Virus record (IMG/VR): IMGVR_UViG_2740892369_000014
Source of the DNA: a virus
Taxonomy: Duplodnaviria > Heunggongvirae > Uroviricota > Caudoviricetes
Reading direction: 5' to 3' (one strand)
Length of the DNA stretch: 27,818 nt
Made by a program: the position numbers. Within the stretch, counting starts at the first letter, position 1. Each line of letters starts with the position of its first letter. Of this stretch, positions 3,001-9,000 are shown in pieces.

Positions 3001-6000
3001 TTGGTCAGCTTCACTGCCTTACCTCCGGTTCCCTCCGCATCGCTGACCACTTCTGCCCTGCCGCCACTGGCTGACCATCCCTGTACTTTCAGGCTTCCCT
3101 CTGACTCGCTGGCAAGGTAAGAGAGCAGTGTTGTGACGCCTGTGGCTTCTGCACCGGAAGGCGATGAAGGGCGCACCTCTGATACTGTCGATGATGCCCC
3201 CGCGTTTAGCGCCACTCTTCCCGCATGGCGCAAAATCGCCGTTGCCAGACGGTCGGAAATAATCCCACGGCGTGCCCAGGCGCTGAAATGGCTCGCCCTG
3301 TCCTGTGACGTCCAGGTGGCTGAGCTGTCACGCCATTTCGAACCGTAATATCCGATACCCGGAATGTCCGGGTCTTCTTCCGGTTTGTTCGTCGGCACAT
3401 TCACCCCGTTCTCATCGGTCATGAACGGTACGAAATGGATATTCTTTTCCGTTTTGTTTTTATAGCTGCCGTACACCGTCTGGTACGTGGATTCGTTCTT
3501 CTGCTTCCAGAAATACGTCGTATCTCCACATATCCAGGGAACACCGCCAGCAGAGCCACCGACGCACTGACCTGCCATATCCGCCAGGTCTGCACGGAAT
3601 TTATCAACCAGCGCACCAAACTGTGCTGCGTGATTTGCCGGCGTACCGCCAAAATCAAATTCCCCCTGCATCCACACCACGGCAAACAGCACATTTTTCG
3701 GATTCTTCTTCAGTGCTGCTTTTGTTCGACCGATAAGGTCCTTATACAGCGGCTTGTCCACACCCCAGCGGGTTGAATTCTCCGAGGCACCACTCGCGTC
3801 ACTGTATGTGCCATCGGCTCCGGTGGTGAACGCTGAACCACCACGACAGCACGGAACCAGCAGAATGCCCGCATTCGCCGGTATAAACGGCAGCAATTTT
3901 TTGGCGATATGCAGCCCTTGCCCCACGGTTCCGTACTGCCCCTTTGACAGGTCCGCTTTCGGATGGTTAAGGCGGCTCATGTCCTGCACATCATGCAGAC
4001 AATGGTCCGCCGGAATGATGTCGTTATATTTACAGGCGACACCGCCCGGTGTCACCGTACTGCGACGCGCCAGCTGCTTAATGCGCGGGTCCGGACGGTC
4101 ATATGTCTCCGGCAGCGGAAGGCCTTCACCATATGCCATGCTGTTTGACTGCCCCGCCAGAACCACAACAAAGTAATACTCCGGGTCTCTGGTGGCGCTG
4201 ATTACTGTGCCTTCTCCATCCGACGGCTTCACCAACACAGGTGTGGTGACATCACCTTCCGCCGCAATGGCCTGCATCAGAGTATAAGGCGTGATGGCCA
4301 CCGGGCTGCCAAATGGCTGCCACCCCTCCTTCAGTTTTTGTGTCAGCTTTTCCGCAAGGTCTGACGGCGACGCCGCCCTGACAACATCATAATGTTTAAT
4401 CGACATCGAATTTCTCCCGTGTACAGGAACAGAGTTAAAAAGCCGGAACCGGAATCAAATTACAGGATGGCCATCTGCCAGTGGCTGGTCGTAAAAAAAG
4501 GCCACGCCATGCGCAGCCGGAAATAAAGGGATAACGATGATAGTTTGAGAAAAACAGAAACAACACTTTTGTGGCAAAGCATGGTGCCGGGTGCCTCCCG
4601 GTGAATTCAGTATCAGCACCTGAATCCGCGATTATCCCATATACCTGGTTGCTGATCGCCCCTCCGCACAGGGGGATTCACCATGCAGAAGTGTTTTTAA
4701 TAAACAGCAAACAAAAAAATCAAGCATTATGCAGGCTGTTTCTTTTTATCACCGGCCACAGCAATACCACAATGCCGCAGACCAGCACCCCATCCGCCAG
4801 CACCGACATGATTCTGCTGGTGAAATCCACCATCACCACCAGAAACAGCAGGAGTGCAGCCACAGCCAGGCGCAGTTTTACCGTCACAGGTGATTCTCCA
4901 GACGAAGACCCAGAACACCGGCAATCTCTTCCAGCACCTTGCGCTCTTCCGGCTCAATTTCGCCGTCTGCCTCCGCAATGGCCACCGCCACATCCAGCAC
5001 ATCTTCCGCTTCACGCGTATCGTGTTTCACATCCTCAATCTCGCGTAACGCGGCACGACGACCAATTTTAAAATTGGTATCCAGCTGACCGATAATAGTT
5101 GCGCTAATCGCATTAATTTCCGAGGTAAACGCAGACAACGCAGGCTGATTACGTAAGACCTGTTCGATCTTCGCTTTCTCGGATGCCTCGCATTCACCAT
5201 CTGCATAGGCCACCAGGTATGCAGCGTTAATCACCGCCTGTGCCAGATCGCGTTTCTCAAACTTTTTAATTTCCGCTGCCGCTCTGCGGGTTTTCTTTTT
5301 GAAGATTCCAAACATCGTGACGTTCCTTTGGGTGGGTGAGCCAACGCCCGGGAGCGATCTGCCCACAGAGAAAGTCACACTGACCACTCCGTAAGCTCAC
5401 CCCCGAAAGGCTCTGTGGTTGATATGCGCCGGGCGTGGCGCAGATACAAAAAAGGCCCGCCGAAGCGAGCCTGGAAAATAAGTGTGGCGCGTTGTAGTGG
5501 AGTCGAACCACTGACCGATTGCTTAGAAGGCAATTGCTCTGTCCGACTGAGCTAACAACGCATGATGCTGATAATGGACCGCCATCGGGGACTTGAACCC
5601 CGCGCAGCCAGCTTCGAAGGCTGGCGCTCTGTCCCGATGAGCTAATGGCGGTATGTGATATGGTGGCCCTTGCTGGATTTGAACCAGCGACCTGGCGATT
5701 ATGAGTCGCTCGCTCTCACCACTGAGCTAAAGGGCCGAGCCAAAAAATAATAATCAGATGAAAATCAATAATCAAGCCCTTGCCTGGATACATATCTGTC
5801 TGGCGGGAAGCCATAATAGCGGTGAAATACAGAAATAAAGTAGGACCTGCTTGAATAACCGCATTTTTCTGCTATAGCCTGTCCATATCCATGCCGGGAA
5901 CATAACATATTTACAGCAACACGCATCCGCTCTTCCAGCAACAAGCGACTGAACATGCCCCCTTCATTTTTCAGTTTTGTCTTTAACAAACTCTCACTCA

Positions 6001-9000
6001 TATGCAACTGTAGAGCAATCGCACCAAGCGTCCAGCTTGCTGATATATCTGTCTGAATTATCGCCCTGACTTTGGCACTTATGCTGGATAAACATCCACT
6101 TAAAAACAATGACATCCGTTCATCTGTTTCAAACAGAGACAGGCAGGCCATCATAAGAAACATATCCGTGGCCTCTCCGGAAAATCCCTGGCTGGTAATT
6201 AAAGCCGCAGCCAACGCAGGATTGTTGGGTTCCAGCAACAGGTAAAGCGGAATGTCAGTCAGACGAGTCCTCGTCAGCTTATGCTGACTTTCCAGATATT
6301 GACTTACGACGGATTCGCTTATATCGACAATTTTAACTTTGCCATAATGCATAAGGAAAAGCTCCCTGATGCATTTGGTGGCCAGAACGACTGAGCCTGG
6401 CTTAAGTGACAACGTATCCTTTTCAAGAAAAATATTAATTGGGGAGCAAACCATGATAACTGAACAGACAACAGCCATTATAATTTTACTTTCATTAGCA
6501 ATTGGTTAGCTCAATTATAGCCCCAAAAGGTAAATTATCATCAACACATAAGCAAAGGACTGACAGGTGTCGCCCCCCCACCAGCCGCCCATTCACCACA
6601 AATAAAAAGCCTTCAGGACTGAAGGCGTCTGTAACAACCGCACTGATAGTCTGCCAGACCCGCCATAACAAGCTGGGTCAGTATTAACTGGCAGCGTTCG
6701 CGTGAAAGGTAAGTATTCTGCGCAACCTCCCCGACTGTCGCCGGTTCGGTAACGCTTAATTCATTAAACACCACTCTGGCGGTTTCGGTCATATCCTGCT
6801 GTTTCAGCATGTCTTTTTCCCTTTTTCGGTTAACGTGACACACCAATAACTCTTGTCGAAAAAGCCAGCAAGCTGAAAGAACGGTATTAATAACCACCAG
6901 CGAATTTATTGCGCTGCTGTATATTACGGACACAAAAAAACCACCTTCCGGTGGCTTCCTTGTGCGAAAAAACTTGCATTTCGCCTCGCGATACAGCTTT
7001 GCGAAGCTTACAGGAATTCAAGCTGTTTCTGCGTAAAAAAGCAAGCTTTTTTTATCGAAATGAATCGTGCATAGGTACATAAAGCATGTGTTCAGCCACG
7101 GCTAACCAACCTGCAATACGTTTCTCACATGTGCTGAAACACCATTCCGGGTGAGTACGATTTAAACATTCTGCCATTTTTCTCTTACTCATTCCCCGTC
7201 CTTCGTACCTTTGCCGGAGAATATTGATTAGCCCGGGATATTCCCCAAGCACCTCACTGATAACGCGATCAATAATCAACGCCTCTGTGTCTGTACAATG
7301 TGACAACCAGCTCTTCTGCTTCCCTCTGGTCATATCCCGAAAAAATGCCTCAAGTTCCGGTTTTTCCAGCCCGGATTTCTTCATGCTGCGTAAAACCTCA
7401 TTAACTGCTGTTTTCGTCAGCTTTTTCGAAACCAGTAACCGGTTAAACATATTTCCGGATTTACCCCCACCGATATACGACCACCGCCCCCACATCCGTA
7501 ATTTCCCCTGGATCCAGACTGCTTCCAGCGTGTTCAGGCGTAAATGTTCGCCGCTTTTGCCTGTAATTTCCGGATATATCATATTTACGCTCACTCACTC
7601 TCAATTTTGTAAATCTTCACACCCAGCCGTCCACCAGATACTGGCTGACCGCGCACAATATTGATTTCATCAAACTGCTCGTCATCAATGAGCACTTCCG
7701 CATGCGTCAGCGCATCCAGCGGTGCTTTCAGAATGTTGTCCAGGTCACGGCGGCGCTTATCCGGTGGCTCTGCAATCACCTTTATCGCCAGCCTTCCGGA
7801 CAGGCTTAATTTCAGCCGCTGCTGGCGAACAATAAGCGCCACAGCCCGGCGATAACGCTTTCCCTCCTCCGAGATAAAATATGTGCTGCCACGGCGTCGC
7901 CAGTAAGTGTTCACCGTCGGCGGGTAAGGTAAAACCAAATCTATGAGCATCAGTCACCTCTTTTACCCAAGCACGCCAGTTGCAAAGGCGTGATCAAGAA
8001 AACGAAAAATTAAATCAACCTGAGAACCATGCTTTTCTTCGAACGCCAGCGGATCCGCATGAAGCTCGTTGTGATGCTCCCGACACAGCGGTAGCGTGAA
8101 AATATCGTGAGATTTTGTCCCCATTCCCCCCTGACCATGACCAATCAGGTGATGCGGATCGTCAGCAGGCTTACCACAACACGCACACGGCTGTGTCTTC
8201 ACCCAGTGCGTGTATTTCTCGTTAACCCAGCGGCGACGTTTAGGTCGTTTCATGAAAGATTCCGGAGACTCAGGATCAACGGCAATGCTGACCACCGTCT
8301 TTTCCTGTGGCGGTTTTTGCTGGTGAGCGTGAGGCAGCGGCGCAAGATTTTTTGTGCGCTGCTTCAGTATGCTGGTGGCGGTCTGCTCTCCCGGTACGAT
8401 GTCGCTTTCACGGTACATTGAGCGGATTTTTTCCGCACGCAACCCCAGCGAACGACGTAATACCGCTTCCGGTAGCGCGTCCGCCACCTGATTGCGGACC
8501 GCCCACCAGGATAATTCAGCCAGAGATAATTCCCGTTCCTGTGCACCACTTATTGCGTGACGTATGACGTCAATCATCCAGGCTGTCAGATTTTGTTGAG
8601 CAAGCTGCCCGAGTGATTCGGATGTCTGGTCGCGCAGCTGGTTGTCGCAGTGCCAGCACAACACCATTGCGCCGGTACCATAACGGTGAATGACGGTTTC
8701 GCTGTGATGATAATCGCCGTGTGGCCACTGGCAGGATTTAATATGGCGCAACAGCCAGTCAGACAATGCACCAGCACCACCAGCAGCACGAATCACCCGT
8801 GCGTTACTGAAAAACGGCAGCAATGTTTTGTCTTCCACTAGCGGCTGGCGAACGGCAGGAACAACCCCGGACGGCAGATTACGCATGCTTTTCGGTTCCG
8901 GCTCCACCAGTACCCGGGTATTGTGGAATACCGGCATGGATTCACGACCCGGCTTAACGATCACCAGCCCGAGTTCCGGTACCAGAACAGGTCGAAGTAA

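Follow-up and report, generated by a model that had tools for sequence, protein, structure and literature searches.

The stretch of DNA analysed here, referred to as the window, is the 27,818-nt virus record IMGVR_UViG_2740892369_000014. At 100% identity it matches a lambdoid prophage carried by Escherichia coli O26:H11 strain 11368 as well as several chromosomes of enterohaemorrhagic E. coli (EHEC) of serogroups O26, O103, O45 and O145. A sequence-only reading of the window had noticed a gene for an AraC-family regulator between the late antiterminator gene Q and the phage tRNAs, and such a gene is indeed present at 5765-6478 on the minus strand. The evidence gathered below leads us to assign it, with a probability of about 85%, as the intact O26:H11 orthologue of psrB, working by the published Psr mechanism from a variable slot of the late operon. 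Psr proteins (prophage-encoded secretion regulators) constitute a group of regulators found on lambdoid prophages of EHEC, of enteropathogenic E. coli (EPEC) and of some other E. coli; psr is used here for the gene of the window and its relatives.

Gene layout from Q to the esterase

All the relevant genes of the region from Q to the esterase lie on the minus strand, and the RefSeq limits of both the AraC-type open reading frame (ORF) and the ORF of 65 amino acids (aa) next to it equal the coordinates found here. In order of transcription, the features are as follows.

9009-7963 (-): DUF968 gene, before RusA
7950-7591 (-): RusA gene, just before the Q-like gene
7594-7052 (-): Q-like late antiterminator gene of the DUF1133 type (Pfam DUF1133, 1e-110; Phage_antitermQ, 1.4e-8; PHROG 753, 'anti-termination protein Q-like')
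6955-6935 (-): strong terminator-like hairpin read from the sequence, with a CCACC-GGAA-GGTGG core in an extended stem, then U7
6810-6613 (-): 65-aa ORF, upstream neighbour of the AraC-type gene
6626-6609 (-): intrinsic-terminator-like hairpin with a T5 tail (-11.1 kcal/mol, z -2.25)
5739-6541: swappable cargo cassette of 803 bp, promoter-like element plus psr ORF, from sister-prophage comparison
6541-6514 (-): sigma-70 promoter-like element, ATGATA-16-TATAAT, with 10 of 12 positions agreeing with the consensus, some 36 nt upstream of the start codon of psr
6478-5765 (-): psrB-type gene for a 237-aa AraC/XylS-family regulator (ORF call and Pfam)
5736-5485 (-): tRNA-Ile2(CAU), tRNA-Arg(UCG) and tRNA-Arg(UCU), in that order (ARAGORN and RefSeq)
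5472-5453 (-): terminator-like hairpin after the tRNA cluster (-14.9 kcal/mol, z -3.51)

The interval between Q and the 65-aa ORF contains two terminator-like hairpins, the second being the strong stem with U7 at about 6955-6935. Only 28 nt separate the psr stop codon from tRNA-Ile2(CAU), which ARAGORN calls Met(CAT) and RefSeq annotates as tRNA-Ile (ileZ type, AUA-reading). The hairpin at 5472-5453 is the first terminator downstream of psr, and after it follow a TerB gene, a DUF3927 gene, a small RNA (sRNA) of the STnc100 type and a sialate O-acetylesterase gene. An Rfam scan of 5765-7051 returned no known RNA.

The AraC-type protein and its assignment to PsrB

AraC/XylS-family proteins are recognised by about 100 C-terminal residues with two helix-turn-helix (HTH) motifs, and this is what the 237-aa protein contains. 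Both motifs are intact: the Pfam model HTH_AraC scores 50.3 bits against a cutoff of 26.6, and HTH_18 scores 39.8 bits against 33.6, the latter over profile positions 2-78 of 80. Residues 134-233 align with the solved DNA-binding domain of GadX (3mkl) with one single-residue gap (E value 7e-19, 42% identity), and the AlphaFold model of this domain superposes on 3mkl with a template-modelling (TM) score of 0.89 and a root-mean-square deviation of 1.5 A. A protein lacking an intact HTH, which the sequence-only reading had named as one result that would speak against its proposal, is therefore not what the Pfam hits, the alignment and the model superposition reveal. The whole protein is predicted to consist of an N-terminal beta-rich regulatory domain followed by the C-terminal double-HTH domain, and its best full-length structural matches in Foldseek are Rns, CsvR and ToxT (E values 3e-11 to 3e-6), which have the same succession of domains but are only 13-23% identical to it. 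Rns, CsvR and ToxT are virulence regulators of the AraC family with fatty-acid-binding N-terminal domains. Because the N-terminal domain of the window protein is modelled with low to moderate confidence (predicted local distance difference test, pLDDT, 42-74), no ligand pocket can be claimed for it.

The closest reference is a protein of EHEC strain EDL933, WP_000301797.1, with which the window protein shares 234 of 237 residues (98.7%; 709 of 714 nt). The three substitutions are A103V, H196Y and I202V, V202 being the common state in the family. The published real-time PCR primers for Z2104 find the window gene with zero mismatches and reproduce the stated 158-bp amplicon, whereas the PsrA-type copy has one mismatch to them. 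OI-57 has been published to include psrB/z2104 (PMC8565820). The EDL933 prophage that encodes WP_000301797.1 carries three nleG-family genes at its end, and its tandem neighbour is integrated at ompW and carries paa/adfO; since both the nleG-family genes and the paa/adfO neighbour fit the published content of OI-57, we infer that this prophage is OI-57. The second EDL933 copy is 91% identical both to the window protein and to the first copy, which agrees with the 90% reported between PsrA and PsrB (PMC10877973, PMC8565820). Prophage context and primers together thus point to PsrB as the orthologue.

In the alignment and neighbour-joining tree, the window protein falls in a Psr clade of its own, with 55-99% identity within it. 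Outside this clade it is 37% identical to a regulator of the Sakai prophage Sp1, which we take to be probable PatE, and 28-34% identical to GadW, GadX, YdeO and AppY. The best NCBIfam model is YdeO (NF007407), matched over its full length at 108.5 bits against an equivalog cutoff of 348, and GadX (NF007432) scores 87 bits against a cutoff of 500. An assignment as a GadX, YdeO or AppY equivalog is ruled out by these scores, the low identities and the position in the tree. The sequence-only reading had described a prophage cargo regulator of the GadX, YdeO and AppY kind and had asked for a phylogeny against these proteins and prophage regulators; the description holds, and the separate clade, the 234 of 237 residues and the Z2104 primers narrow it down to PsrB.

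The surroundings compare in the same way. The psrB prophage of EDL933 (Z2104, OI-57) shares with the window the gene order DUF968, RusA, DUF1133-type Q, 65-aa ORF, psr, tRNAs, TerB, DUF3927 and esterase, as well as an identical PerC/Pch protein, WP_001302717.1. It differs in having two tRNAs instead of three, and the window prophage resides in an O26:H11 host, integrated in tandem at another site. PsrA of EDL933 (Z1789) resembles the window gene in its 91% identity, in an identical promoter-like region and in its slot before the tRNAs, but it differs by 21 substitutions, of which roughly two thirds affect the N-terminal domain, and its gene sits behind another Q type and a CPBP protease gene, with the adjacent small ORF frameshifted. 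PatE (Z0321, CP-933H) and AppY (DLP12) are also AraC/XylS activators of gadE and the AR2 acid-resistance genes encoded on prophages (PMC10877973, PMC10057817). They share the two-domain architecture and a conserved N-terminal 'VCSV' motif with the window protein; however, they are only 37% (the Sp1 regulator, probable PatE) and 28% (AppY) identical to it, and their genes lie at the right prophage end after the tail-fibre genes instead of in the late-operon slot. The chromosomal GadX, GadW and YdeO act on the same regulon as the Psr group, but their overall identity is 30-34% and the window gene is phage-borne rather than located in the acid fitness island.

The late-operon slot and its signals

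Three kinds of sister prophage were compared with the window. The EDL933 ompW prophage shares the Q protein and the small ORF with it, and has a DNA methyltransferase gene before its tRNAs. Homology to it runs from 8000 to 6542, breaks sharply, and resumes at 5738, so the exchanged cassette comprises 5739-6541 and nothing else, flanked by the terminator of the small ORF on one side and tRNA-Ile on the other. Stx2 phages, which carry Shiga toxin (Stx) genes, likewise present the arrangement small ORF, methylase, tRNA. In the CP-933N/Sp6-type prophage all of 6815-5266 is missing, so that its interval between Q and the esterase is without the small ORF, psr, the tRNAs and the start of TerB. These comparisons are evidence that psr and the DNA methyltransferase gene are alternative fillings of one late-operon slot. 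Psr thus behaves as a moron in its pattern of presence, absence and replacement and does not have a terminator of its own: no stable hairpin was found in 5737-5790, between its stop codon and tRNA-Ile.

The promoter-like element at 6541-6514 forms the 5' edge of the cassette. Four copies of the psrA and psrB types share it unchanged, it is missing where the methyltransferase gene occupies the slot, and the promoter-like region upstream of psr is more conserved than the coding sequence. A moron expressed from its own putative promoter is therefore possible, as judged from the consensus match.

Upstream of the cassette, the homology that prophages with other Q types have with the window sets in only at 6942, with the U-tail of the strong hairpin; for this reason the data would fit an exchange of Q and its terminator region as one module. 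The RNA fold of 6925-7051 reaches -49.1 kcal/mol (z -4.39), and the hairpin at 6955-6935, located downstream of Q, is a candidate for a terminator of the tR' type and also a boundary between recombination modules. Since neither a consensus scan nor inspection by eye revealed a convincing PR'-type promoter between Q and the U7 hairpin, the designation 'Q-associated terminator' draws on position and on the module boundary at 6942. The small ORF has its stop codon inside the hairpin at 6626-6609, which is conserved in five of five aligned prophages. The regulator gene had been placed directly after the Q-associated terminator, a placement that does not hold, given that the small ORF, this second terminator and the promoter-like element at 6541-6514 lie in between.

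The sequence-only reading had also called the regulator gene low in GC, with AT-rich codon usage. The psr gene has a GC content of 0.44 (0.45 at third codon positions, GC3) against 0.52-0.56 in the TerB, RusA, DUF968 and esterase genes, with Q at 0.46, so the claim of low GC stands relative to those four genes; against the window mean of 0.482 (standard deviation 0.049) the dip is mild, 21% of 714-bp segments being equally or more AT-rich. A strongly low-GC island, with psr only at the 21st percentile of the window, is ruled out. The proposed AT-rich codon usage is borne out modestly, the rare codons ATA, AGA, AGG and CGA amounting to 4.6 per 100 in psr versus 1.4-3.4 per 100 in neighbouring genes. 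Although the numbers are small, ATA serves for 5 of 15 isoleucine codons and AGA/AGG for 6 of 13 arginine codons. The ATA and AGA/AGG codons of psr are those served by the adjacent phage tRNAs.

That psr sits within the late operon, right before the tRNAs, could also mean that it serves the phage, its main targets being phage promoters (late genes, tRNAs, downstream toxin or cargo) and the effects on host acid resistance incidental. In the Stx2k-converting phage phiSTEC1575-Stx2k (OQ243220.1, 16748-17461) a 91.6%-identical psr lies directly upstream of the tRNAs and stx2k, which fits that reading and implies that some Stx phages carry the regulator beside their toxin genes. However, the slot is dispensable, being filled by a DNA methyltransferase gene or by nothing, so no essential phage function depends on psr; the closest relatives outside the Psr clade are host acid-resistance regulators, and direct action has been reported on the promoters of the host genes gadE and hdeA (PMC10877973). 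We consider a phage-serving role very improbable.

The small ORF upstream had been included by the sequence-only reading as a putative DNA-binding part of the inserted unit. It exists at 6613-6810 and a DNA-binding function is reasonable, but comparison of prophages indicates that it is a real conserved backbone gene outside the psr cassette. The end coordinate 6933 given for the whole feature is not retained, as it corresponds to the GTG start of a 106-aa reading that we reject: that start lies inside the T-run of the terminator hairpin, and the first residues of the homologues from other genera are MLKQQDM. The 65-aa form is likely the correct one. Its product belongs to phrog_331 ('function unknown' in PHROGs), is 78-92% identical across prophages of Escherichia, Salmonella, Klebsiella, Citrobacter and Buttiauxella, and has a ratio of non-synonymous to synonymous polymorphism (pN/pS) of about 0.2-0.3. 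AlphaFold models it with a pLDDT of 90.6 as a three-helix winged helix of H-H-H-beta-hairpin topology. In Foldseek it matches winged-helix domains of OhrR/MarR- and IclR-type regulators (TM 0.7-0.8, E value about 2e-3), and at E values of about 2e-3 also the winged-helix dimerisation domains of O-methyltransferases, which do not bind DNA; the Pfam model TrmB stays at 16.1 bits, under its cutoff of 25.6.

Adjacency on the same strand and the confident prediction of a winged helix might suggest that the small ORF and psr form a two-gene regulatory module in which the small protein is a partner or modulator of Psr. Yet the small ORF occurs in about 2165 E. coli records, roughly threefold the 727 with psr, and its neighbours vary between psr, a DNA methyltransferase gene (in Stx2 phages and the EDL933 ompW prophage) and neither. 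A terminator and the cassette boundary separate the two genes, and the small ORF is frameshifted beside the PsrA-type copy of O157, the paralogue for which a deletion phenotype has been reported. Such a module seems to us extremely improbable. As the product of the first ORF after the tR'-like terminator, which has the corresponding place in Stx2 phages, after Q and before the segment of methylase, tRNA and stx, the 65-aa protein could conceivably be an unrecognised DNA- or RNA-binding regulator of the late operon that gates the downstream cargo (psr, methyltransferase, tRNAs, stx), an improbable proposal. This winged-helix protein, and not the AraC gene, is the least explained element of the region.

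Psr function, carriage and meaning for EHEC

According to reviews, PsrA and PsrB belong to the AraC/XylS regulators, and the prophages that carry them also contain effector loci and Pch regulators (PMC10877973, PMC8565820, PMC4456613, PMC10057817). Both raise GadE and YhiF, with indirect repression of the type III secretion encoded by the LEE (locus of enterocyte effacement) as a consequence (PMC10877973, PMC8565820, PMC4456613). PsrB binds the gadE promoter as well as positions -132 to -45 of the hdeA promoter, and it enhances both survival at pH 2.5-3.5 and passage through the mouse stomach (PMC10877973, PMC8565820, PMC4456613, PMC10057817). The idea that prophage AraC regulators of this group rewire host acid resistance and virulence is thus sustained by published PsrB effects on gadE, hdeA, yhiF and the LEE (PMC10877973, PMC8565820, PMC4456613). 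The prophage of the window agrees with the setting in which Psr regulators are described (a lambdoid prophage with a Pch regulator and effector loci) in being lambdoid and in its PerC-family gene, which in the source genome lies 0.9 kb outside the window, past its start.

The mechanism proposed for the O26 gene is borrowed from work on the 98.7%-identical EDL933 protein and the 91%-identical paralogue PsrA. By binding AT-rich sites of the gadE and hdeA promoters, the C-terminal double HTH would raise GadE and YhiF and induce the GAD/AR2 acid-resistance genes, and GadE and YhiF would indirectly repress the LEE operons and type III secretion. Because of the 98.7% identity and the intact DNA-binding domain, the same mechanism is the best-supported explanation for the window gene. 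In a lysogen, transcription would be low-level or stress-dependent and start from the promoter of psr itself; in a derepressed prophage, read-through from the Q-dependent late promoter would add to it. From lambda biology, Q-dependent read-through is expected on derepression for a late-strand gene between Q and the lysis genes, and the co-expression of psr with late genes would follow from its position and strand only. The prophage is probably defective. Its integrase gene (22907-23927, plus strand) is annotated as frameshifted by RefSeq, and its CI-like repressor (17104-17496, plus strand) has an HTH_3 domain only and lacks the S24 autocleavage (peptidase) domain; on both grounds inducibility is uncertain, and induction, if any, would need an antirepressor.

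Among 5426 complete E. coli genomes, 726 carry the gene, mostly with one to three copies each and almost always on the chromosome. All 727 matching records cover at least 80% of the gene, so that degradation to a pseudogene in related genomes, raised beforehand as a possible objection, finds no support. Conservation reaches 99-100% across O26, O103, O111, O145, O104:H4 and O157. It is also present at 99-99.9% identity in the LEE-negative O104:H4 strain 2009EL-2050 and in S88, and porcine isolates that are named enterotoxigenic E. coli have it at 92.6% identity; in LEE-negative backgrounds its role could therefore only concern acid resistance or other targets. The arrangement Q, small ORF, psr and tRNAs recurs in EDL933, in O157 strain 10671 and in a second O26 prophage, each time accompanied by a PerC/Pch gene of that prophage. 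This second prophage of O26:H11 11368 lies in tandem with that of the window, has the same DUF4224 and integrase module, and carries a PsrA-like copy (NC_013361.1, 1189818-1190531; 47 kb past the right end of the window) with a PerC/Pch gene of its own.

Several points weigh against our assignment. The PsrB label hinges on the identity of the EDL933 prophage with OI-57. The published location of psrA, moreover, does not match the EDL933 assembly NZ_CP120944.1: reviews place psrA/z1789 in OI-50, whereas no AraC gene was found in Sakai Sp6 or in the EDL933 espK/espN/nleL prophage beside potB (OI-50/CP-933N content; 3060000-3109000 of that assembly), and the PsrA-type copy of EDL933, WP_000261909.1, occurs in the serT/yccA prophage together with tccP2 and sodC. 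Either the original assembly was chimeric in near-identical prophages or NZ_CP120944.1 is rearranged. The promoter-like sites of the region are not above chance, three being found against 2.6 expected from shuffled sequence. The mechanism is taken from reviews, and the literature searched contained no experiment on the O26 allele. Deletion of psrA increased secretion, and deletion of psrB alone in EDL933 had little effect on it and caused no significant change (PMC10877973, PMC8565820), its effects appearing when the gene was supplied in trans or induced (PMC10877973, PMC8565820); since the deletion is nearly silent, native expression may be low. Finally, the PsrA-like paralogue 47 kb away could make the window copy redundant.

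The silent deletion and the neighbouring paralogue would also suit a view of psr as a silent or redundant passenger of a defective O26 prophage, for instance one silenced by H-NS, with the PsrA-like neighbour supplying the Psr function. The AT-rich region, the frameshifted integrase and the ratio of non-synonymous to synonymous substitution rates (dN/dS) of about 0.43 between the psr paralogues, which denotes moderate constraint only, could be added to that view. On the opposite side, the ORF is full length in 726 of 726 carrier genomes, the coding sequence is conserved at 99-100% across the serogroups listed above and the promoter-like upstream region even better than the coding sequence, and induced PsrB raises acid survival and passage through the mouse stomach (PMC10877973). 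We therefore regard a passenger as unlikely and favour a functional PsrB orthologue.

Other content of the window is of interest in its own right. An Rfam match to the STnc100 sRNA (4543-4715, minus strand, 104.7 bits) lies between the TerB/DUF3927 and esterase genes, and the EHEC virulence sRNA EvrS has been mapped in EDL933 between z1789 and the esterase gene z1793 (PMC11774850). A 90%-identical copy of window positions 4570-4705 is found in the matching interval beside the PsrA-type gene. EvrS may accordingly be a member of the STnc100 family and may not be single-copy across strains, unlike what is stated for EDL933 (PMC11774850). In the early region of the prophage the DicF sRNA lies beside dicB, and there are a toxin-antitoxin pair of the HigB/HigA type and a pair ParD/ParE.

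19475-19526 (+): DicF sRNA
17543-18252 (-): HigB/HigA-type pair
9356-9981 (+): ParD/ParE pair

The right end of the window (24731-25483, plus strand; 24224-24406; 25608-27192) derives from the neighbouring prophage and includes tail-fibre genes, a gene for a TccP2-like effector and an EspV fragment; the TccP2-like (EspF-repeat) effector gene of the window thus belongs to the neighbouring tandem prophage.

The psrB-type gene is an already known, characterised regulator in a known position, and a virulence-relevant regulatory moron was here recognisable from the raw sequence. Two loose ends are the role of the winged-helix ORF and the placement of psrA in EDL933 assemblies. To the known picture our analysis adds the exact limits of the cassette (5739-6541) and evidence for the alternation of psr and a methyltransferase gene in one late-operon slot, and also that O26:H11 11368 holds PsrB-type and PsrA-type copies, each with a Pch gene, in tandem prophages. 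In EHEC, Psr regulators have been published as the link through which carriage of a prophage bears on acid resistance and on the timing of type III secretion. With at least 99% identity in LEE-negative backgrounds (O104:H4), as well as in strain S88, psr is not confined to the LEE-positive strains in which its secretion-repressing role was defined.

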